A DNA stretch of 64,000 bases, from contig JACQCH010000007.1 of NCBI GenBank assembly GCA_016201735.1, forward strand, positions 17,900 to 81,899, read 5' to 3'. This stretch comes from Candidatus Omnitrophota bacterium. Its GTDB lineage: Bacteria > Omnitrophota > Gorgyraeia > 1-14-0-20-64-10. The notes beneath the pieces are model-generated. The model had not been told where the DNA came from, searched no databases, and saw only the letters and a list, made by a program, of their open reading frames with translations. Each line of letters opens with the position of its first letter. The first letter of the stretch is position 1. This document shows positions 6,167 through 50,791 of this stretch, one piece after another. The position numbers and the translations under genes are program-made.

Positions 6167-6908
6167 GAAAATCGATGAACCGAAGATCCAAGAATTAGCC
6201 GAATCTATACGTCAAAGTGGTTTGATTTACCCACTTTTAGTTAGGAAAATAGATAAAAGTGGTTTGAATAGACCAGAATACGAATTAATCGCCGGAGAGA
6301 GAAGGTATCGGGCCCTTCGTTTGATCGGAGAAACTGAGGCCCCCGTCATTGTGAAGGAGATTCCCGACCAGAAGGCGCTGGAACTTTCCCTGGTCGAGAA
6401 TCTTCAGCGGGAGGGACTCAACCCCATCGAAGAGGCGTTGGCCTATCAACGGTTGGTTCAGGAGTTCGAGTTGACCCAGGAAGAAATTGCGGCCGCAATG
6501 GGAAAGGATCGGGCGACGATCGCCAACACCTTGCGGCTTTTGAAGCTGGATTCCAAAGTGCGGGAGGAGCTGATCCAGGAACGGCTGACCCTGGGGCATG
6601 CCCGAGCGCTCCTGGGGGTCGAATCACAGCCGGCCCAAATCCTTTTGGCTCAGCGGATCGTCGCGCAGGGGCTTTCCGTCCGTCAACTGGAGCGGATTGT
6701 GCGGGAAATGACCACCCGATCCCGGAGAGGGCGCGTCTCTAAGACGGAGGATCCACACCTGAAGGACGCAGAGGGCCGTTTGAAGAGATCGTTGGGCACA
6801 CACGCGGAGATTCTTCCCGGAGGAGTTCACGGGCACTCCGGCGGCTGGATCCGGATCGCCTATTACTCTTTGAAGGATTTGGACCGCCTCTTGGCAAGGT
6901 TGACTTGA
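6024..6908 (+). CDS. parB: Chromosome partitioning protein ParB/Spo0J
   Basis: N-terminal RGLGKGIRALIP, GERRYRA motif, HTH, C-terminal dimerisation domain. Confidence 0.9.
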   Translation: MPMPENRGLGKGIRALIPEGPPQSKKTSEEQIKVPLEAIRLNRFQPRKKIDEPKIQELAESIRQSGLIYPLLVRKIDKSGLNRPEYELIAGERRYRALRLIGETEAPVIVKEIPDQKALELSLVENLQREGLNPIEEALAYQRLVQEFELTQEEIAAAMGKDRATIANTLRLLKLDSKVREELIQERLTLGHARALLGVESQPAQILLAQRIVAQGLSVRQLERIVREMTTRSRRGRVSKTEDPHLKDAEGRLKRSLGTHAEILPGGVHGHSGGWIRIAYYSLKDLDRLLARLT

Positions 6909-10763: not shown

Positions 10764-10835
10764 GGCGCGGTAGCCAAGTGGTAAGGCAACGGTCTGCAAA
10801 ACCGTTATTCGTCGGTTCGATTCCGACCCGCGCCT
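10764..10835 (+). tRNA. tRNA-Cys (GCA)
   Basis: Cloverleaf folded by hand: acceptor GGCGCGG/CCGCGCC, anticodon loop CTGCAAA, T-arm GTCGG-TTCGATT-CCGAC; no encoded CCA. Confidence 0.8.
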
Positions 10836-10853
10836 TGTTTGATTTGATCCGGG

Positions 10854-10936
<83 letters not shown>

Positions 10937-10952
10937 CGAATTGAAAAATTTT

Positions 10953-11030
10953 GGGCGGTTGGCGCAGTCCGGTTAGCGCGTTTCCTTGACATGGAAAAGG
11001 CCACTGGTTCGAATCCAGTACCGCCCACCA
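10953..11030 (+). tRNA. tRNA-Val (GAC), CCA encoded
   Basis: Acceptor GGGCGGT/ACCGCCC, anticodon loop TTGACAT, T-arm ACTGG-TTCGAAT-CCAGT, 3' ACCA. Confidence 0.8.
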
Positions 11031-16856: not shown

Positions 16857-18983
16857 ATGAAAATTCTTTTCTCCTGGCTTAAAGAGTTCATCGAAATTTC
16901 CCTCCACCCGGAGGCGTTGGCGGAGCGGCTGACCTTGTCCGGCGCCGAGGTGACCGGGCTCACCCAAGCCGACGGCGATTGGGTTTTCGAGTTGGAGATC
17001 ACTCCCAACCGGCCCGATCTCCTGAGCCATTTAGGGATGGCCCGGGAAATCGCGGCGATTTTAGGACGCCCATTCCGCCCGACAAAAACGGCTCGAGAGA
17101 ATGTCTCTCTGATGAATCAACCGCCGCCTTCGTTCCCAGTGGTCATTGAGGATACCCAAGGATGCGCCCGCTACGTGGGGATCGTCATGGAAAGGGTTCG
17201 GGTGGGAGAAAGTCCGCCGGAAATGGCCCGGCGCCTGATCCGTTTGGGGGTGCGGCCGGTCAATAACGTGGTGGATGTCACAAATTTGTGCCTGCTGGAA
17301 CTTGGCCAGCCGCTGCACGCGTTCGACCTGGACCGCTTGGAGGGGCGCTCGATCCGGGTCCGGACCGCCGGGGCGAAAGAAACGCTGGTGACGCTCGATG
17401 GAGTTTCCCGGGCGCTTCCTCCGGACACGCTGGTCATCGCCGATGCGAAGCGGCCGGTGGCACTGGCGGGGATCATGGGGGGCCGCGACACGGAGATCAG
17501 CTCCAAGACGAAACGGATTTTTCTCGAGTCGGCCTGCTTTCATCCGGACCGGATTCGCAGGACCGTCCGGCTGACCAAGCTTTCCTCCGACTCTTCCTAT
17601 CGGTTCGAGCGGGGAGTGGATTTACAGATGGTGCCGATGGCAGCGGTTCGGGCCGCCCGTTGGATTCAAAAGGTCGCCGGAGGAAAAATAGAAGGGGGCC
17701 TGATCAATGTCGGAGAGCCCTCACCGGTGCGGCGGCGGATCCCCCTGCGTCCGAAGCAGGCCCAGAGTCTGCTCGGGATGCGGATTTATCCCGCGCAACA
17801 GCGTCGATACCTGGAACGGCTGGGCTGCCGTGTCACCGGGACCCAACAGGGGTACCGGGTGGAACCCCCCTCTTGGCGCAGCGACCTCAAAATCCCGGAG
17901 GATCTTTACGAGGAATTGGCCCGCCTCTGGGGATACGATCGGTGTCCCACTTCCCTTCCGCCCGTTCCCCGGCAGGAGATCAGTTCCCGCTGGCAGCCGG
18001 TGGAGGATCACTGGCCTGTTCTTCAGACGCAGATTCGCCGCCTGCTGGTGGCGGCAGGGGCACAGGAGATCATGACCTACACGCTTCTGAGTCAAGAGGG
18101 CCTTTCCCGCTGTCGGCTGGCCCCTTCCCGCAGGATTGCGAATCCGTTGAGCCGGGAACAGGAGTGCCTGCGCCCTTCCTTATTACCGGGTGCCTTGGAG
18201 GTGGCGGCCCGAAATCTTCATCGAAAGACGGCAGCCCATTTCCAGTTTTTTGAGTTGGGGCACCTCTATGAAAGAGAAAAGGTCTCCGGAGAACCTTCTG
18301 CCCTTCCGGACCGGGCCCTTCCCTTTGAAAAGAGAACCCTTTCAGTCCTGGCGGCAGGAGTTCCCCTCCCCGCTTGGGGAGGGACCCCGAAGGGGCCGAG
18401 CATCCTGTACCTTAAAGGAATCATCCAGTTCCTCTGTGAGCGGCTCCGAATCGGTCTCCCCCGCGAAGAAATTCTTGGAGAGAAAGAAATTCAAAAAAAC
18501 GATTGTCCCTGCTCGTACCTTCTGGCCCCGGCCGTTCAATTCCGGCTAGATGACCAGCTTCTTGGATGGACCGGCAGAGTGGATCCAAAGGTCTTGAGCG
18601 CCCATGAAATCCCAGAAGAGATTCCTCTCATTTATGCGGAGCTGAACCTGGAGTTGATCATAAAGACCCCAGCCGTTCCTTTGAAGGTTCAGCCGTTGGC
18701 CAAGGTTGCCCCGGTTCTCCGGGACCTGGCGATCCTGGTGCCGGCGGAGATTCTTCATGAAGCAATCCTGCAGGCCATACAGACGGCGGGACGGCCTCTT
18801 TTAAAGGAAGCGACCCTGTTTGATTTTTACCAGGGGCCTCAAGTGCCGCCGGGGGAAAAGAGTTTGGCCTTCCGGCTGGAGTTTTCCGCTGGAGACCGGA
18901 CCCTGACCGAAGAAGAAGTCGCCGCTGCCTTCCGGAAAATCCTAGACTCCCTGGGATCCCGCTTCAATGCCAGCATCAGGTAA
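16857..18983 (+). CDS. pheT: Phenylalanine--tRNA ligase beta subunit (short ~700-aa form)
   Basis: MKILFSWLKEFIEI... B3/4 and B5 domains; follows pheS. Confidence 0.9.
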   Translation: MKILFSWLKEFIEISLHPEALAERLTLSGAEVTGLTQADGDWVFELEITPNRPDLLSHLGMAREIAAILGRPFRPTKTARENVSLMNQPPPSFPVVIEDTQGCARYVGIVMERVRVGESPPEMARRLIRLGVRPVNNVVDVTNLCLLELGQPLHAFDLDRLEGRSIRVRTAGAKETLVTLDGVSRALPPDTLVIADAKRPVALAGIMGGRDTEISSKTKRIFLESACFHPDRIRRTVRLTKLSSDSSYRFERGVDLQMVPMAAVRAARWIQKVAGGKIEGGLINVGEPSPVRRRIPLRPKQAQSLLGMRIYPAQQRRYLERLGCRVTGTQQGYRVEPPSWRSDLKIPEDLYEELARLWGYDRCPTSLPPVPRQEISSRWQPVEDHWPVLQTQIRRLLVAAGAQEIMTYTLLSQEGLSRCRLAPSRRIANPLSREQECLRPSLLPGALEVAARNLHRKTAAHFQFFELGHLYEREKVSGEPSALPDRALPFEKRTLSVLAAGVPLPAWGGTPKGPSILYLKGIIQFLCERLRIGLPREEILGEKEIQKNDCPCSYLLAPAVQFRLDDQLLGWTGRVDPKVLSAHEIPEEIPLIYAELNLELIIKTPAVPLKVQPLAKVAPVLRDLAILVPAEILHEAILQAIQTAGRPLLKEATLFDFYQGPQVPPGEKSLAFRLEFSAGDRTLTEEEVAAAFRKILDSLGSRFNASIR

Positions 18984-19025: not shown

Positions 19026-19032
19026 AGAAATG

Positions 19033-19240
19033 TCCCTGCGGTGTTCGTGATTGGTCGAAAGCGATTCTGAACCAACAGCAGAATCGTAGGGAGCTTGACT
19101 TCAGCGGTGGAGAGCAGGCCCACCGGGTGTTGAAACAGGCCCGGAGGGAAGCAAGAAACCGGTGAGCAGGTTCCCGATGGTGAAGATACCAGGTTCAAGA
19201 ATGGATTCGACACACGGCATTCGCGGGGACGTTTTTTTGA
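19033..19240 (+). ncRNA. Candidate small RNA (~205 nt), possibly 6S RNA-like
   Basis: Starts just downstream of the promoter above and ends at a T7 run (gacgtttttttg) 22 nt before rarA. 5' GTCCCTGCGG pairs with 3' CCGCGGGGAC to close a long terminal helix; internal hairpins cgattctg..cagaatcg and ccggg..cccgg; no coding potential. Confidence 0.35.
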
Positions 19241-32111: not shown

Positions 32112-32534
32112 GTGAAACCTTCCAGCGGAGTCCGTTACGCATTGACCGCTCTGGTGGATCTGACCCTTCACCAGCAGACCGGGCCGGTGACCGTCGCGGC
32201 GATCGCCAAGCGCCGGGGGATTCCGGTCCGGTACCTGGAACAGCTGTTCAACCGACTCCGGCGTCGCGGGATCGTAGCTGCCGAGCGGGGTCCCCGAGGA
32301 GGGTACCGTTTAAACCGAACCCCCGGGGAAATCCCAGTCAGTGAGATTTTCCACTGCTTGGAATCGGTCGATGCCGTTCACCCTGAGCAAGCCGATCCTT
32401 CCCTTGCGGTCTGGAAACAGGTGGAGGCGGCGGTCCAGACCACGTTGGAAGCGACCACCCTCGAGGCCCTGGTCGCCCAAGCCCGGGAGAGGGTCCCTTC
32501 TCCCATCAACCACCCGTTCACCTTCCACATCTGA
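32112..32534 (+). CDS. Rrf2-family transcriptional regulator (CymR/IscR-like; only one Cys, so probably no Fe-S cluster)
   Basis: N-terminal wHTH (VRYALTALVDL...IAKRRGIPVRYLEQLF). Confidence 0.8.
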   Translation: MKPSSGVRYALTALVDLTLHQQTGPVTVAAIAKRRGIPVRYLEQLFNRLRRRGIVAAERGPRGGYRLNRTPGEIPVSEIFHCLESVDAVHPEQADPSLAVWKQVEAAVQTTLEATTLEALVAQARERVPSPINHPFTFHI

Positions 32535-32539
32535 CGAGG

Positions 32540-32563
32540 GATCCCCGCTTTCGCGGGGATGAC
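32540..32563 (+). repeat. REP-like palindrome, copy C (GATCCCCGC-TTTC-GCGGGGATGAC), immediately after the Rrf2 stop codon
   Basis: Same hairpin family as 24547-24570. Confidence 0.6.
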
Positions 32564-32710
32564 GCTGCGCGTCAATTTTTCTTCCTGCCCCTCTTGTATT
32601 TTGGACGGCGAATCAGGTATGCTTTTTATGTAAAAGCACATTGACGCCAACGACCCTGTTATCAAGGCAAATCCGCCGCAAGGCGGAGACGCAAAGCTAG
32701 AGGGCCCCCT

Positions 32711-32780
32711 CGGGGCAGCCAGTTACCAGGGACGTAAAAACGGCCTTGGCTCCTTATAACAAGAGAGACCCAAGGCCGTT
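32711..32780 (+). repeat. Leader module 1: 38-nt motif GGGGCAGCCAGTTACCAGGGACGTAAAAACGGCCTTGG plus hairpin AACGGCCTTGG…CCAAGGCCGTT
   Basis: Direct repeat of the module at 32869-32938. Confidence 0.5.
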
Positions 32781-32868
32781 GGCGTTTTGACCCTTGCCCA
32801 TCCTGCCGTTTTATCCATCACCTTGTTTTTTCAAAACCGATCAGGTAATTATTGGACTAGGCAGTTTG

Positions 32869-32947
32869 AGGGGCAGCCAGTTGCCGGGGTCAAGAACGGC
32901 CTTGATTTCTGGCGATGGATCAGAAATCAAGGCCGTTCTTGTTTTGC
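32869..32947 (+). terminator. Leader module 2: repeat GGGGCAGCCAGTTGCCGGGGTCAAGAACGGCCTTGA, 19-bp perfect hairpin (AGAACGGCCTTGATTTCTG / CAGAAATCAAGGCCGTTCT) and TGTTTTG; terminator/attenuator-like, 24 nt before the RBS of the next gene
   Basis: Perfect long stem followed by a U-rich tract, then AAAAAAGGAGG and ATG 32971. Confidence 0.4.
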
Positions 32948-32970
32948 GTAAATAAAAAAGGAGGAAACCA

Positions 32971-33912
32971 ATGCGAGGCTTTCATTTGTTGGCTATTGGA
33001 GGGCTGGTGGTGGGTCTGATCGGGGTTACCGGGAACGAGGCGCTGGCCGCCAAGGCAGAGGCCGAAGCGACCAAGGCGGATTCAGAGAATGCGGCCCTGG
33101 ATGCATCGAGTTTTGAGGGAACAGTCGCCGATTTCCAAAGCCAGGGGTTGAGCCGGTCCGAAGCGGAAGCGTTGGTCCGGCAGGCGTCCGGTGAGGTCGG
33201 CGCGTCTCGGGACCTGCCGTCTGCTGGAAGAGAAATAAGAGAGCAAAGCGGCAACTTACTCCAGGGCTCGACCGGCTTAGGCGGTGGGACCACGGGCGGC
33301 CAGGGCCAAGGACAAGGAAACAGCCAGGGAGCTTCTTCTAATAAGAATAATGAGACCACCGGTGGAAACAATCAAGAGCGCGGCCAATCCGGTGGATTTG
33401 GCGGGAACCAAGAGCATGGTCAATCCGGTGGATTTGGTGGAAGCCAGGAGCGTGGCCAATTCTCTAATGAGGGGCAGGGTCGGGGCCAAGAGCGCGGCCA
33501 ACCCTCTAATGAAGGACAGGGTGGGAACCGGGAGACCGGTGGTAATCGAGAAGGCAACCGTGAGATGAGCGGAAATCGGGAGGGTAATCAAGGAGGCGGT
33601 CGTGAAACGGGCGGCCGTGAGATGGGTGGTCGCGAGGCAGGTGGCCGCGAGACAGGGGTTCGTGAGACCGGAGGCCGCGAAACGGGCGGACGCGAGGCGG
33701 GTGGTCGCGAGCAACCGGAACAGCGCGAATCCGGGGGTGGCCGTGAGAGCAACCGGGAACAGCGCGAATCCGGTGCTGGCCGTGAGCAGCGGGAGCAACC
33801 CCAGATGGAACGCCCACAGATGGAGCAGCCCCAGAGGGAACAGCCTCAGCAGGAGCGGCCCACATCCGAGCGGCCCGAAGGGCCTGTGCCGGGTGCACCG
33901 GAGGTTCACTAA
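32971..33912 (+). CDS. Secreted low-complexity protein with ~12 tandem GGRE(T/A/M) pentapeptide repeats, also Q/E/R/G-rich
   Basis: Signal peptide MRGFHLLAIGGLVVGLIGVTGNEALA. The DNA carries 15-nt tandem repeats (ggNggNcgNgagNNN) at ~33520-33720. No recognisable catalytic domain. Confidence 0.55.
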   Translation: MRGFHLLAIGGLVVGLIGVTGNEALAAKAEAEATKADSENAALDASSFEGTVADFQSQGLSRSEAEALVRQASGEVGASRDLPSAGREIREQSGNLLQGSTGLGGGTTGGQGQGQGNSQGASSNKNNETTGGNNQERGQSGGFGGNQEHGQSGGFGGSQERGQFSNEGQGRGQERGQPSNEGQGGNRETGGNREGNREMSGNREGNQGGGRETGGREMGGREAGGRETGVRETGGRETGGREAGGREQPEQRESGGGRESNREQRESGAGREQREQPQMERPQMEQPQREQPQQERPTSERPEGPVPGAPEVH

Positions 33913-34027: not shown

Positions 34028-35299
34028 ATGGATAAGGCAATCTTTCGATGCACAGCGGTTGTTTTAGCGGTGGGGCTGGTTCTCTGGAGCCCAGGGATGC
34101 CGCTGGCTCTAGCGCTTGACGCAGAGGTAATCACTCAATGTCGGGAGGCGATCGCTAATGATTCCACTCTCGATCCTGCGGTCAAGGAGATCGCCTTGAA
34201 TGAAGTGGTGCCGAAGTTGGAGGAATCCACGAAGCCAGATGCTGCTCCGGAAGTGAAGGCTGAGGCCAAGATTGTGGAGACTACGGCAGGAACGCTTCAT
34301 CAAGCGAGCGAGGCAACCAAGAAAGCCCTGGAGAATTCGGACACGGTGGTGAAGGCCACCGTCGATGGACTGGTCAAGAATGGAGTTTCCGCCAGCGAAG
34401 CCAACAAGGCCGGAGAGAAAATGAAGACGGATCTGGCGAAGGCGCGTGAGACGCTTCAGCAAGGGGGAACTCTGCAGGACGCCGCGAAGTATTTTGAGAG
34501 CTGCCAGAAGACGTTCACCGATTACTCCGGTTCCGTGGGGAAGGATCAAACCCTAAACATGAAAGACATCCTTCTTAACAGCGGCAGCGGCGGACGCCCG
34601 GAGGATTTTAGATCCATGCAGATGTTGGGCTCCGTCATCGATTCATCCCGGAACGGCAACGTGACCGAAGCGGCGATGAGGGCCCATTTCGAAGCGACCT
34701 TCCACGACGTCATTCTTCAAGGGGGGACGGAGGGGAAGAATGGGCCGCCTCCCGAAGCGATGCGGGGATTGATGGAGCAGATGGTGGCTTGCGGAGTGAA
34801 CCCAATGGAAGTGGCGCAGAAGTCCTACGAGTCTTACCGAGCGGCGAACCCCGGACTTGAGACATTTGGCAATCCGGTCGGCGGTCCGAATGAGATGTTC
34901 GGGCCGGGACCCGGAATGGGGAATGTCCCACTAGATGCGGGCCGATTTTCTGGGCCTAGCCCAGAGGCCATCGCTGCGATGAGTCCGGAGCAAAAGGCCG
35001 GATATGAGGCGTGGAAAAGTGGGGATTCCGCTGTGATTCACGAGATGATGATGAACGACACCATGAGGGCGGCCGTTGAGGCAGGAACCCCCCCGCGCGA
35101 GGTGCTGGAACAGATGGCCCGCAATGAGGTGATGTACCGGGAGATAATAAGTCCCGCTGAGGTTACCCAGGCCCGGGTAGAGGCCCAACAGCAAACGGCG
35201 TTAGATAAATATGCGGACGGGCACGTGTTGTGTCCTCCAGGGAAGACGCATAATGAGGCATGGAAAGCAGGAGACCCTCCCGATCAGCACTGTCTATAA
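34028..35299 (+). CDS. Secreted hypothetical protein (423 aa)
   Basis: Signal peptide MDKAIFRCTAVVLAVGLVLWSPGMPLALA; AT-rich promoter region with TTAATCGAAAATTAA palindrome upstream. Confidence 0.5.
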   Translation: MDKAIFRCTAVVLAVGLVLWSPGMPLALALDAEVITQCREAIANDSTLDPAVKEIALNEVVPKLEESTKPDAAPEVKAEAKIVETTAGTLHQASEATKKALENSDTVVKATVDGLVKNGVSASEANKAGEKMKTDLAKARETLQQGGTLQDAAKYFESCQKTFTDYSGSVGKDQTLNMKDILLNSGSGGRPEDFRSMQMLGSVIDSSRNGNVTEAAMRAHFEATFHDVILQGGTEGKNGPPPEAMRGLMEQMVACGVNPMEVAQKSYESYRAANPGLETFGNPVGGPNEMFGPGPGMGNVPLDAGRFSGPSPEAIAAMSPEQKAGYEAWKSGDSAVIHEMMMNDTMRAAVEAGTPPREVLEQMARNEVMYREIISPAEVTQARVEAQQQTALDKYADGHVLCPPGKTHNEAWKAGDPPDQHCL

Positions 35300-35309
35300 A
35301 TCTCCAGAT

Positions 35310-36363
35310 TTAGAAGTGGGCGGTCAGGGAAGTGGTGGCGGTCCAGTCGACGTAATCGCCGGTGGGGTCGTTCGAGTTTAAAGAAGTGTGGCTGAAGCTG
35401 GAGCCGATGCTCCAGGTTTTGTTGAAGTCGTACGTGCCGGAGATCGTCCAGATCTGGGTGTCGTCGTACCGGGACTCGGCTGTGATGCCGCTGACCTGAC
35501 GGTGGAGGTAGTTTTTCAGTTCGTAGGAGTAGCTGGCGTTGGCCGAGAGTTTTTTGGTGATCGGCCGGTTGACCGAGGCGGTCAACTTGTAGTCCTGCGC
35601 ATCGTAGAAGTCCTGCCGGGCGTCGTTGGAATCGTGGAAGTACCATTCCTGCTTGACCTTCAAGAGGGCCTCTTTCCACGTCGTCCCCAATTCGTATCGG
35701 AACCGGTGCCGAGTGTCTTCCCGAGGGGTGAGCGTATCCAACCCGGCGCCGTCGCGGGCCCTTTTCGAGATGTAATGCCGGACGAACCATTCGTATCGGA
35801 CCGCATGAAACCACCGCCCCCAAAGATTCTGCCGCAGCCCAATGGAGGGTTTGATCTCCCGGTAATTGGAGGGACCGGAGGAGGGATACCAGGTGTCCCC
35901 CAAGTCGACACCCGCGTCCGCCCGCCACATCCGCCCCGGCTGCCAAGTCAATTTCACCGGCGTCAGGGTTTGGGAGGTATAGGTGCCGTCGCCGTACTCG
36001 AAGTATTTGTCAAAGGAGCCGGAGTAGGAGGTCTGCCAGCTTAGGGTGGGAGTCAGCTTTTTGGAGAGACTCAGATAGAGGGATTCTTCCGAGTACCAGT
36101 CGCCGTTGCGCTCCGCAGCGTTGGCCGGGTTTTTCTCGTAGGAGATCCCTTGAGAGACCTCTCCGGAGAACCGGAGCCGTCTGGCCTTGCGGCGCTCCTC
36201 CAGGATCTGCTGGGCCCGCCGCTTGATGGCGGCGACCACCTCCTGAGTCGTCGGCGCAGCCGGTTCCTCAGCGAAACTCAAACTGGCCTGATTTGGAAGC
36301 AGAAGGATCGATCCGACAAGAAGCCCGATGCCTAGGACCCGCTTACTGCTGGCGCCGTTCACG
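35310..36363 (-). CDS. Outer-membrane beta-barrel protein (porin-like); start uncertain
   Basis: Signal peptide KRVLGIGLLVGSILLLPNQASLSFA from GTG ~36363; alternating beta-strand pattern; C-terminal …TATTSLTAHF (terminal Phe). Confidence 0.55.
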
Positions 36364-36798
36364 GAGCACCTCCTCTTTCTGGTAGGCCCGTTCTTGGTAC
36401 CGCTCGAAGGCCTTCGCCCGCTTGAGGGCCGCATCGATCTGGGTCCATTCCGTCGCCCTCGCTTCCTCCACCAGATCATGGAGAAGCCGCTCCAGCATGT
36501 CCCGCTCCTTGCGCAGGCCGTCCAACTCGGCGTAAAGCGAGGCCTTCTGGGCTTCGTTGGGGACGGCGTTCAACGCCTTCCTCTTTTGGACCATCTGCTC
36601 ATAGATCTGCCTGAGGGCATCGTTGACCTTGAGGATCTGCTGTTTTAACGGCTCATCCTCGGTGGCAACGTTGAGGGCTTCTTCATGGGTGAGGGGCGTT
36701 TCTTCTTCGTCGGGCGGGGCCGCTTCCAAGCGGGGAACCAACCAAAGGGAACTGCTTAGGAGAACACCTAAGGCAAAAAACCTCAGATCTTTTCCCAT
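36343..36798 (-). CDS. Periplasmic LTxxQ-motif coiled-coil protein (Spy/CpxP-like)
   Basis: Signal peptide; LTHEE motif; helical, charge-rich; co-oriented and overlapping with the OMP gene. Confidence 0.45.
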   Translation of the reverse strand: MGKDLRFFALGVLLSSSLWLVPRLEAAPPDEEETPLTHEEALNVATEDEPLKQQILKVNDALRQIYEQMVQKRKALNAVPNEAQKASLYAELDGLRKERDMLERLLHDLVEEARATEWTQIDAALKRAKAFERYQERAYQKEEVLRERRQQ

Positions 36799-36904
36799 CC
36801 ATCCTCCTCTATTCTTCGGGGAGAGTGAAGCAAATTGGAAGTAGTTTAGGGAAGAACCTTCTGTTTGTCAAGGAGGTTATGATATGTTATCCTGACTTCT
36901 TCAG

Positions 36905-37460
36905 GATGACGAAGGAAGGGATCCGCCTCAAGCTCCTTGAAAAGCTTCGCCAGCAGCCGCCGAAAGCCCGTTTAAAGAAGAGCGCTGCCATCGCGCGAAA
37001 ACTCCGGCGTTTGCCCCTCTACCGGAAGGCCAAGGTTCTCCTCTGCTACGCGGCCGTCGATGGGGAAGTGGAGACCCGTCCGATCTTGGATCAGGCCATC
37101 GCCGACGGTAAGCGGGTCGCTGTTCCGATCACGTTCCGGCGGGACAAGAAACTGGCCGCCGCCGAGATCAAGGATCCCAAGAAGGGTTTGAACTTCAAAG
37201 GGCCGTTCGGGATTCCGGAGCCTTCGCGGCATCTCCATTGGAGGATCGCTCCTGATAAGCTGGACTTGGTCTTAGTCCCCGGTGTCGCGTTCGACCGCCG
37301 GGGCCATCGGCTGGGCCGGGGCTTAGGGTACTTCGACCGTTTCTTGGAGAAGGTGCCGGCGGATGTTCCCCGGATCGGGTTGGCCTTCCGGTTTCAGGTG
37401 GTGAGAGAACTTCCCTTCGAACCGCACGACCAGCCGATGCATCGAGTGATCACAGAATGA
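36905..37460 (+). CDS. 5-formyltetrahydrofolate cyclo-ligase
   Basis: 5-FTHF_cyc-lig motifs (…VPGVAFDRRGHRLGRGLGYFDRFL…); ORF track starts at 36825 but a start at ATG 36905 fits the family better. Confidence 0.75.
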
Positions 37461-42738: not shown

Positions 42739-42812
42739 TGCCCTGTCGTCCAATGGTAAGACACCAGATTCTGGATCTGGGTATCTAGGTTCGAGTCCTA
42801 GCGGGGCAGCCA
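42739..42812 (+). tRNA. tRNA-Gln (CTG), U1:A72, CCA encoded
   Basis: Acceptor TGCCCTG/CGGGGCA, anticodon stem CCAGA/TCTGG with loop TTCTGGA, T-arm CTAGG-TTCGAGT-CCTAG, 3' GCCA. Confidence 0.75.
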
Positions 42813-49798: not shown

Positions 49799-50791
49799 TT
49801 GAGAATGAAGGCAAAAAGGGCAATTTGCCAAAGATGCCGTCTACTCTCGAGAGGAGAAGGAATTTTAGTGGCCACGCAGAACGGGATTCCGGTCCCTGAG
49901 ATTCTCTGGAACTCCTGCGACGGGATGATGGTGATCGACAAGAACCGAAAGGTTCTGGCCATCAATCCGGCGCTGGAGCGCCTCATCGGCTGCCGCAGCC
50001 AGGAGATAGCGGGAAGGGTGGCCTGCGGGGAGATGCTTGTTTGCCGCAACGCCCATGGTTGCAAACTTGCCCAATCTCCTTCCGAATGCCCGGGCTTGAA
50101 GGCGATCCAACAGGATGCTGTGGTCCCCACTGCGGAGTATACGATTCGGACGGCCGACGGCAGAAGGATCGCGATGAGCACCAGCTACACGCCCTTCCAG
50201 CTTCCGGGGCAACCGGTCTGGGCGTTGGCTGTGATGCGGAATGTCACTGCAAGGAGGCGTCGGGAGCGCCGGCTGGCCATTCAGGCGATGACCGATCCTT
50301 TAACCGGCTTGCCCAACCGGATGGCGTTCCGGCAGGCTGCCTTTCGGGAGATGAAACGGGCGGACCGACATCGTCAGCCGTTGAGTATCGCCATGGCGGA
50401 TCTCGATCGGTTCAAGGGGTTCAACGATACCTACGGCCATCCGATGGGGGATGTTGTCTTAAAGTCCGCGGCCCGGGTGCTTAGACAGAGGCGGCGCGCC
50501 TCGGACCTGGTGACCCGCTACGGCGGGGATGAGTTTGCGATTCTCTTGCCAGAGACAGACGCCGCAGGGGCAATGGTAGTGGCCGAACGGCTTCGAATCG
50601 CATTCGCCCAATCCCTCTTCGCCTCCGAGAGCTCAACACCTTCTTCGGTTTCTGTGCCGGTCACCCTCAGCCTCGGGGTGGCCGTTTTCCCCGGGGATGG
50701 GGCGAACTGGGAAGAGGTGTTGGCCGAGGCCGACAGAAGGTTATACGAAGCCAAGCAGGCAGGGGGCAACCGGGTGGCCGGGTCACCCTAA
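49799..50791 (+). CDS. PAS-GGDEF diguanylate cyclase with a 4-Cys motif in the PAS domain
   Basis: RYGGDEF active site; PAS carries CGEMLVCRNAHGCKLAQSPSEC (C-x5-C-x5-C-x8-C). Confidence 0.8.
   Translation: MRMKAKRAICQRCRLLSRGEGILVATQNGIPVPEILWNSCDGMMVIDKNRKVLAINPALERLIGCRSQEIAGRVACGEMLVCRNAHGCKLAQSPSECPGLKAIQQDAVVPTAEYTIRTADGRRIAMSTSYTPFQLPGQPVWALAVMRNVTARRRRERRLAIQAMTDPLTGLPNRMAFRQAAFREMKRADRHRQPLSIAMADLDRFKGFNDTYGHPMGDVVLKSAARVLRQRRRASDLVTRYGGDEFAILLPETDAAGAMVVAERLRIAFAQSLFASESSTPSSVSVPVTLSLGVAVFPGDGANWEEVLAEADRRLYEAKQAGGNRVAGSP

Follow-up and report, generated by a model that had tools for sequence, protein, structure and literature searches.

A c-di-GMP-I riboswitch cassette and a truncated companion cassette probably form the leader of a secreted repeat-protein gene in an Omnitrophota bacterium

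Introduction

What is encoded in the repeat- and hairpin-rich leader of about 400 nt that precedes the gene at 32971-33912 in a 64,000-nt stretch of Candidatus Omnitrophota DNA (contig JACQCH010000007.1; the whole stretch is called the window below)? We consider it probable that the leader consists of two promoter-leader-terminator cassettes of an Omnitrophota-lineage family, in which an intact cyclic di-GMP (c-di-GMP) riboswitch is followed by a truncated unit. The first-pass annotation of this region had proposed a tandem riboswitch/attenuator or a small RNA (sRNA) locus controlling the gene and suggested an Rfam scan as a check. The scan identified a riboswitch at once upstream of 32971-33912, and the idea of a riboswitch with a terminator-type expression platform ahead of this gene is upheld, while the overall reading is partly supported. 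All features are on the plus strand unless stated otherwise.

Repeats and hairpins of the leader

The repeats and hairpins of the leader are real and non-random. Within the 64-kb window, the 20-mer GGGGCAGCCAGTTRCCRGGG is found in two copies (32712-32731 and 32870-32889) against 0.05 expected, and four matches to AACGGCCTTG or its complement compare with 0.17 expected. The repeat finder reported three direct-repeat families in the leader with a spacing of 156-158 nt, as well as two hairpins, here called T1 and T2, and the fold of the whole leader has a z-score of -5.75. The duplicated 38-nt motif described at first pass is present in two copies, but their lengths are 37 and 35 nt, a 2-nt indel sets them apart, and the gapless consensus therefore does not fit copy 2 exactly. 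Judged from the alignments, the motif is the 3' strand of an aptamer, an A-rich linker and the 5' arm of a terminator, which are common to paralogous cassettes.

Cassette 1 and its aptamer

By sequence and predicted fold, 32644-32789 is a canonical c-di-GMP-I (GEMM-I) riboswitch, and ligand binding is predicted. Rfam model RF01051 together with a family alignment places the aptamer at 32653-32734, and the RF01051 match at 32656-32730 reaches 59.5 bits, the gathering score being 35 (E value 4.1e-9 for the window). Helix P1 is CCCUG/CAGGG, extended by CG/CG; helix P2 is UCCGCC-GCAA-GGCGGA with its GCAA tetraloop (GNRA) at 32677-32680; and helix P3 spans 32695-32724. In c-di-GMP-I aptamers, the GNRA loop of P2 docks into a receptor within P3. 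G20, A47 and C92 are the ligand contacts in the Vc2 crystal structures (Vc2 numbering). Here G20 corresponds to 32666 in J1/2 (UUAUCAAG), A47 to 32693 in the junction GACGCAAAGC, and C92 to 32726 in J3/1 (AC). In the alignments to the Rfam consensus, all contact positions are present, as CAAG-GC-AAA (G20), GACGC-A-AAGC (A47) and GUUA-C-C (C92). The GNRA-capped stem TCCGCC-GCAA-GGCGGA noted at first pass lies at 32671-32686 and is helix P2. Both Rfam and the lineage-specific covariance model R1 find one complete aptamer only in 32500-33000, and likewise in the whole window.

Two variant classes of the aptamer were considered and rejected. The c-di-GMP-I-GGC model (RF03167) is the top model of its clan in permissive E-value mode, but its 57.1 bits are below the cut-off of 59. 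We take the name of this class to denote a G in place of A at position 47, where the window has A (ACGCAAAG versus ACGCGAAG in the model consensus). Riboswitches of the GEMM-Ib type, which are selective for cyclic GMP-AMP (cGAMP), have A instead of G at position 20, and the window has G there (CAAGGCAAA).

The cassette family and its promoters

Since neither a Pfam match nor, among 5.8 billion proteins, a homologue was found for the 313-aa protein encoded at 32971-33912, orthologous leaders were reached via the gene of its 423-aa neighbour and via Rrf2. Relatives (loci numbered with L) were gathered through the 423-aa neighbour gene, a 19-mer metagenome scan, and contigs with close Rrf2 homologues. 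The 19-mer scan returned 67 loci, mostly coding-sequence coincidences, with riboswitches only at L015/L066, L039, L043 and L069. Ten cassettes were placed in an alignment (A2), and R1 was built from eight complete ones. In the family alignment of eight cassettes, 94.5% of the cells are paired, compared to at most 46% when the partners are slid, and the three-helix fold is kept. Eight pairs show changes on both sides; the cassettes are close relatives and the covariation is limited.

The family has a common layout. A promoter (CCCTTGyAT, 17-18 nt ending in gATCAGG, and TAnnnT) and a short leader are followed by a c-di-GMP-I aptamer, an A-rich linker, a hairpin built on ACGGCC...GGCCGU, and a U tract. 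In the window, candidate promoter P1 (32594-32623) has a -35 element TTGTAT (32594-32599), an 18-nt spacer ending in ATCAGG and a -10 element TATGCT (32618-32623). The promoter-like element P2 (32823-32852) has TTGTTT (32823-32828), a 17/18-nt spacer also ending in ATCAGG, and TAATTA(T) (32846-32852). The combination TTGTNTTTT-N(7-11)-ATCAGGTA has just two matches in the 64 kb, at 32594 and 32823, where 0 would be expected, and the promoter element lies at an equal distance upstream of every cassette in the related loci. P2 matches the L076 cassette promoter at 32 of 36 aligned bases and the promoter of the first L080 unit at 30 of 33, and its motif is 83-91% identical to cassette promoters elsewhere. 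From these motifs, we infer that P1 and P2 function as cassette promoters, P1 being of the sigma-70 type. The promoter suggested at first pass (TTGACG...TATCAA) did not hold up: its spacer is 13 nt, TATCAA lies within the aptamer, and the scan did not list it. An additional ATCAGGTA at 18975, near the 6S RNA gene, is a chance match and was rejected as a cassette promoter.

In the relatives, the cassettes occupy a variable island between Rrf2 and the gene for 5-formyltetrahydrofolate cyclo-ligase (5-FCL). The two genes abut without a cassette in L077, and one cassette separates them in L039 and L076; this cassette is of the P0 type, named after a closing helix P0 described below. L015 has a cassette, a DPBB (RlpA-like) gene and a P0-type cassette, L074 has a similar arrangement with its first cassette 5'-truncated, and L080 has two complete tandem cassettes before the DPBB gene. 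Cassette 1 is of the P0 type, the type that precedes 5-FCL elsewhere. The 5-FCL gene of the window, which starts at about 36906 (Pfam match), lies 4 kb downstream behind a four-gene secreted-protein cluster and retains the conserved GTTATCCTGA motif. In L004, L005 and L087, a single cassette, whose complete aptamer bears an insertion, stands before this same gene cluster. By position and alignment, cassette 2 is the positional orthologue of that single cassette. The conservation expected at first pass is thus found for the aptamer and hairpin, which recur in L004, L005 and L087, but not for the two-unit arrangement, which is absent from those three.

Several observations on the relatives' cassettes stand on their own. 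In L080 (6531-7110), the two complete promoter-aptamer-terminator cassettes lie upstream of the DPBB (RlpA-like) gene; in the first unit, the leader is G/U-rich and about 100 nt long, and another strong terminator (about 6798-6850) is present as well. The cassettes at L074 3686-3832 and L080 6668-6811 have A for G at G20 (CAGAGCAAA and AAUAGCAAA) and are otherwise canonical; an A at this position makes GEMM-I riboswitches select cGAMP. The best model for L074 3686-3832 is c-di-GMP-I-UAU, at 44 bits and below cut-off. The insertion-bearing cassettes (L004 8742-8964, L005 129-329 and L087 2818-3045) have cores split at one site near A47, between GGGAC(G) and (C/G)CAAAGC, by structured insertions of about 45 (L004), 60 (L005) and 150 nt (L087). 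Rfam recognises only their 5' part, with 31-32 bits, and the leader fold of L087 has a z-score of -10; their sequences suggest that they may be an insertion-bearing variant of the aptamer. At L079 590-823, also in the Rrf2/5-FCL island, a cassette-type promoter without an aptamer is followed by a gene for a 77-aa secreted protein, in which a helical motif resembles the N-terminal part of the window repeat protein. A motif upstream of 5-FCL, (C)CCTGTGCTATCCTGA or TGTTATCCTGA, is present in the window (36880-36908) and in L015, L074, L076, L079 and L084, 12-18 nt before the start codon and without a Shine-Dalgarno sequence. It resembles an extended -10 promoter and also the 5' end of the aptamer, CCCTGTTATC (32654-32663).

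Helix P0 and terminator T1

Cassette 1 has, in addition to the Rfam aptamer, a predicted helix P0 that encloses both the aptamer and the hairpin T1. The 5' strand of P0 (ACGCCAACG, 32644-32652) was identified from the minimum free energy (MFE) fold and from covariation, and pairs with 32777-32785; in other words, ACGCCAAC just 5' of the aptamer pairs with GUUGGCGU just before the U tract. P0 is predicted in the MFE fold of cassette 1 and in those of four related P0 cassettes. In L043, the strands are GCACCAAC/GUUGGUGC, with two double compensatory changes; L084 has AGCCAAC/GUUGGCU, and in L074 an A-to-G change gives a G.U pair. P0, a lineage-specific long-range helix, thus covaries. The P0-like cassette of L084 (6572-6716; AGCCAAC/GUUGGCU) has a hairpin without a following U tract, and the ACGGCC/GGCCGU base of the hairpin may therefore have a role beyond termination.

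T1 (32739-32788) was detected by folding and by the repeat finder, with a stem AACGGCCUUGG...CCAAGGCCGUU at 32739-32780, whose arms are 32739-32752 and 32767-32780 (-25.7 kcal/mol, z -5.5). The GGCGU at 32781-32785 can pair with ACG at 32732-32734 or with the P0 5' strand, and the U tract is 32785-32788. Only by the ACG/CGU or the P0 pairing does T1 reach the UUUU. In all cassettes, the ACGGCC/GGCCGU base of the hairpin is kept, and the upper stems vary yet stay paired. Both T1 and T2 have the GC-rich hairpin and following U tract of intrinsic terminators and are predicted to terminate transcription. In each of the five P0 cassettes, the MFE structure has the aptamer and P0 alongside T1. Aptamer and terminator are therefore compatible, as the logic of an OFF switch requires.

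The double pairing potential of ACG 32732-32734, which can pair either with CGU 32783-32785 at the base of T1 or with CG 32651-32652 as the extension of helix P1, also allows the opposite direction. Cassette 1 would then be an ON switch, in which c-di-GMP binding blocks the completion of T1, for example by the P1 extension capturing ACG 32732-32734 and holding the T1 stem 4-5 nt off the U tract, and the secreted matrix-like proteins are induced at high c-di-GMP. ON switches are numerous among the c-di-GMP riboswitches that precede adhesin or matrix genes, and Bc2 is reportedly one of this type, which gives the idea a general precedent. However, with helix P1 formed, P0 can replace ACG as the partner of GGCGU, and the co-occurrence of aptamer, T1 and P0 in the MFE structures of all five P0 cassettes means that they are not mutually exclusive. 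We therefore regard an ON switch as improbable.

Cassette 2

The second unit (32823-32946) is, as judged from the alignments, a paralogous cassette with the 3' third of an aptamer and not a second sensor. In alignment A2, the -10 region of its promoter is immediately followed by GAC, P3 and the 3' strand of the aptamer. The remnant (32855-32889) thus comprises GAC, a degenerate P3-like hairpin and an intact 3' strand GGGGCAGCCAGUUGCCGGGG (32870-32889), which corresponds to the 3' strand of P3, J3/1 and the 3' strand of P1. In a search of 32400-33100, Rfam gave no matches to 32800-32950 at E<=10 except spurious miRNA-like models on the T2 hairpin. With R1, copy 1 scores 154 bits, the eight other complete canonical cassettes 91-152 bits, the truncated L074 unit 44 bits and copy 2 31.1 bits, and the 5' half of copy 2 fits poorly, with low posterior and non-canonical pairs. 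As the 5' two-thirds of the aptamer are lost, no ligand binding is predicted for cassette 2.

These results bear on the first-pass suggestion of a tandem riboswitch, i.e., two ligand-sensing aptamers in series. Natural tandem c-di-GMP-I riboswitches exist, such as Bc3-5 (PMC4759541), and L080 of the same lineage has two complete cassettes in series. In the window, copy 2 is without the 5' strand of P1, the G20 strand, P2 and the A47 junction, it has no Rfam match at E<=10 and 31 versus 154 bits with R1, its 5' half being a misfit, and the sequence upstream of the remnant is the cassette promoter. The two-sensor explanation is essentially refuted.

The terminator T2 (32891-32945) was found by the repeat finder, the terminator scan and folding. 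It has a perfect 21-bp stem (32891-32911 and 32921-32941) with a 9-nt loop and a U tract at 32942-32945, and a folding energy of -37.7 kcal/mol (z -10.2); the terminator scan lists 20 pairs followed by TGTTTTG. The first-pass description of a perfect stem with a U tract is correct apart from the length, given as 19 bp, and its distance of 24 nt to the ribosome-binding site (RBS) is replaced by measured distances of 18 nt to GGAGG (32960-32964) and 29 nt to the ATG. Coordinated changes (CAAGAA/UUCUUG) keep the stem perfect, and in constrained folds, letting the 5' arm of T2 pair upstream costs at least 17.3 kcal/mol. Between T2 and the ATG, the sequence, which includes the Shine-Dalgarno sequence AAGGAGG (32958-32964) and the start codon at 32971 (32958-32973 in all), aligns with the terminator-to-ATG segment of L004.

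A recent local duplication of copy 1 is ruled out as the origin of copy 2, because its linker and P1 3' strand resemble those of L043 and L087 more closely than those of copy 1. Its 20-nt 3' strand matches L043 at 19 of 20 bases. Copy 2 may descend from an L074-like or from an L005-like unit. The nearest parallels to a two-unit leader, L080 and L074, are non-orthologous loci. On the ERZ27297570 contig, Rrf2 is followed by a 584-nt gap and then by the same gene cluster. The simplest reading of these sequences is that cassettes recombined and left one intact unit, debris and one truncated unit. The spacer between the cassettes (32790-32822), for which direct reading and pairwise alignments give a weak and qualitative picture, contains CCCTTGCCC, resembling the -35 region of the L004 cassette, and GCCGTTTTATCC, resembling the terminator tail of the L039/L076 cassettes; these fragments look like debris of a third cassette.

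A further truncated cassette is found at L074 3087-3224 (= L075 662-799), upstream of the DPBB gene. Its promoter is joined to GACGAAAAGC, followed by an intact P3, the P1 3' strand and a terminator weakened by an A.C mismatch, and its left breakpoint is GAC, as in copy 2 of the window. Alignment A2 shows that this unit, too, has lost the 5' strand of P1, the G20 strand and P2.

Instead of being debris, cassette 2 might be a selected and functional derivative without an aptamer. As a leader fixed in the ligand-free state, it could free the gene from c-di-GMP control; it could produce a small RNA of about 90 nt from P2 to T2 that carries the aptamer 3' strand; or, in read-through transcripts, it could offer the 5' half of aptamer 1 another 3' half as pairing partner. 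Preservation favours such a role, as the 20-nt 3' strand is 19/20 identical to functional cassettes and the coordinated CAAGAA/UUCUUG changes preserve the T2 stem. The L074 truncated unit shares the GAC breakpoint and has an intact P3 and an antiterminator-like state only 4.0 kcal/mol above its terminator, and the L074 Rrf2 protein is 76% identical. By sequence reading, the copy 2 3' strand can also pair with the 5' strands of P1 and P3 in aptamer 1. However, T2 beats its alternatives by 17.3 kcal/mol, so the leader is not locked ON, and local pairing within aptamer 1 should outcompete a partner 158 nt away. Moreover, there are just two examples, which may not share a common descent, and the same arrangement is found in no relative among those read. 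We consider a selected cassette 2 to be unlikely.

Proposed working of the leader

Given an intact and a truncated cassette in series, we propose the following working of the leader. Cassette 1 (32594-32789) would provide a promoter, an aptamer and T1, whose last pairs before the U tract are completed by P0. In cassette 2, the 5' two-thirds of the aptamer would be gone, and the promoter, the aptamer 3' strand and a strengthened T2 retained. In transcripts from promoter P1, c-di-GMP binding would lock helix P1, leave the T1 arms free and position P0, and RNA polymerase would stop at 32785-32789, i.e., an OFF switch. In the ligand-free state, the 3' strand of helix P1 (CCAGGG) could pair with the 5' arm of T1 (CCUUGG), and some polymerases would read on. 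Read-through transcripts, together with any transcripts from P2, would then meet T2, which is without a competing structure and, as an attenuator independent of the ligand, might lower expression of the secreted repeat protein. The constrained folds place the alternative CCAGGG/CCUUGG state of cassette 1 at 5.8 kcal/mol above the MFE and the equivalent state of cassette 2 at 17.3 kcal/mol. In terms of the folding model, a gap of 5.8 kcal/mol would be within reach of the ligand-binding energy.

The likely mechanism, resembling that of Bacillus Bc1, is that c-di-GMP promotes termination at T1, with T2 attenuating transcription irrespective of the ligand. Bc1 of Bacillus thuringiensis has a long expression platform with dual rho-independent terminators 28 bp apart, and experiments have shown that the second is ligand-insensitive and can mask the response of the first (PMC11218506). 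The window resembles Bc1 in having one aptamer followed by two terminators. However, about 150 nt separate the Omnitrophota terminators, which are parts of two cassettes, with a promoter-like element and an aptamer remnant in between.

Several points weigh against this working. Sequence and folding models are the basis for the promoters, for termination and for the direction of switching. A strong antiterminator was sought in the folds, but only weak CAGGG/CCUUG-type pairings of 5-7 bp, with G.U pairs, were found. Furthermore, the alternative state still puts a long-range helix beside the U tract in the folds, and termination at T1 might be ligand-independent. If T2 is efficient, the gene would hardly be expressed from either P1 or P2, although it is intact, which would be surprising. 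The remnant (19/20 versus L043) and the compensated, perfect T2 appear better preserved than expected of a neutral relic, and L074 has a similar truncated unit. In addition, the junction between cassettes 1 and 2 comes from a single metagenome-assembled genome.

The surroundings of the P0-type cassettes also count here. Elsewhere, these are followed by a promoter-like TGnTATCCT or another cassette promoter and not by an RBS, while family cassettes without P0 have an RBS and gene directly after them. This fits a stand-alone RNA equally well. Cassette 1 might accordingly be an autonomous sRNA gene, made up of a promoter, a P0-closed aptamer and a terminator, whose product is a c-di-GMP sponge or reservoir, and the secreted-protein gene would be expressed from P2 alone. 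P0 closes the RNA by bringing its two ends together immediately ahead of the U tract, as is seen in stable small RNAs. The aptamer can fold along with the terminator, there is no strong antiterminator, and every P0-type cassette precedes TGnTATCCT or a cassette promoter, never an RBS. The first unit of L080 is followed by two terminators and then by a new promoter. A precedent is merRNA of Bdellovibrio bacteriovorus, a massively expressed c-di-GMP-I aptamer RNA of 445 nt with no downstream gene (PMC3627812). On the other hand, a switch is feasible, given that just 5.8 kcal/mol separate the alternative fold of cassette 1 from the MFE; family cassettes without P0 directly precede an RBS and gene and must act in cis; and TGnTATCCT is no more than a consensus-like match. 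We judge a stand-alone RNA to be unlikely. The comparison with merRNA indicates that a transcript with a c-di-GMP-I aptamer need not regulate an open reading frame (ORF), and merRNA is a possible model for the P0-closed cassette 1; unlike merRNA, the window cassette is known from sequence alone, and a gene follows it on the same strand.

The stand-alone RNA and the selected cassette 2 may also be combined. It is doubtful, but conceivable, that P0-closed cassettes are autonomous c-di-GMP-binding sponge or reservoir sRNAs like merRNA and that cassette 2 is a selected derivative. If so, cassette 2 would either uncouple the secreted-protein gene from c-di-GMP or make an RNA of about 90 nt, whose aptamer 3' strand could pair with the 5' halves of sister riboswitches.

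Comparison with known riboswitches

Cassette 1 resembles the RF01051 riboswitches (type Vc2, Vibrio cholerae) in its P1-P2-P3 architecture with a GNRA loop on P2, and in the GGCAAA, GACGCAAAGC and GUUACC segments that carry G20, A47 and C92. Further likenesses are the downstream intrinsic terminator, the secreted or surface protein genes, and a GGDEF cyclase in the organism. It differs in its Omnitrophota host, in the P0 helix that encloses aptamer and terminator, and in that each cassette has its own putative promoter; binding is here predicted.

Tandem arrangements are known among riboswitches in general (PMC9481103), and Bc3-5 is a triple-tandem c-di-GMP riboswitch (PMC4759541). As in Bc3-5, aptamer-terminator units are placed serially in one 5' leader, a pattern that L080 shows with two complete units. 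In contrast to Bc3-5, only the first unit of the window has a complete aptamer, and each unit has its own putative promoter.

The riboswitch class, which Rfam annotates directly, is already known, as are tandem c-di-GMP riboswitches and dual terminators. As read from the alignments, the new elements are the occurrence in Omnitrophota together with the cassette organisation, the P0 helix and the truncated unit. A c-di-GMP riboswitch in front of a cluster for secreted, repeat-rich proteins would tie this cluster of an uncultured bacterium to second-messenger (biofilm or surface) signalling. The Rrf2/5-FCL island offers a natural series of cassette evolution, with complete, duplicated, insertion-bearing and 5'-truncated units that have their own predicted promoters. 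If the truncated or the P0-closed unit were functional in its own right, this would be a new way of using riboswitch parts.

Controlled gene cluster and flanking features

The putatively riboswitch-controlled gene (32971-33912, an ORF) is the first of its cluster and encodes the 313-aa protein, which has a signal-peptide-like N terminus and G/E/R/Q-rich low-complexity repeats; the gene itself contains tandem DNA repeats of 15 to 42 nt. The gene at 34028-35299 in the same cluster encodes the secreted, helical 423-aa protein, which has only six metagenomic homologues and no Pfam domain. AlphaFold predicts it to be all-helical with low confidence (pLDDT 62). The cluster (32971-33912 and 34028-36798) is completed by a weak match to a beta-barrel porin (35310-36479, minus strand) and a 151-aa protein, and its synteny extends to L001, L004, L005 and the P0016 contig. 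The window also encodes a PAS-GGDEF diguanylate cyclase (49799-50791) with an intact GGDEF motif (Pfam GGDEF, E value 1.8e-45), which makes c-di-GMP signalling plausible in this organism.

Upstream of the leader, the Rrf2 ORF ends at 32534. The repetitive extragenic palindromic (REP)-like palindrome reported at first pass (32542-32574) is present and has a T tract after it, but it is a double GC-rich hairpin (32542-32559 and 32560-32574) followed by ATTTTTC (32542-32581 in all; fold -24.1 kcal/mol, z -3.2; terminator-like in the scan). From its position and sequence, it is probably the terminator of the upstream cysK-Rrf2 genes and lies outside the riboswitch.

Other RNA genes of the window are a 6S RNA (19030-19233, 84.5 bits), a cluster of three tRNAs (10764-11027) and a further tRNA (42739-42809).

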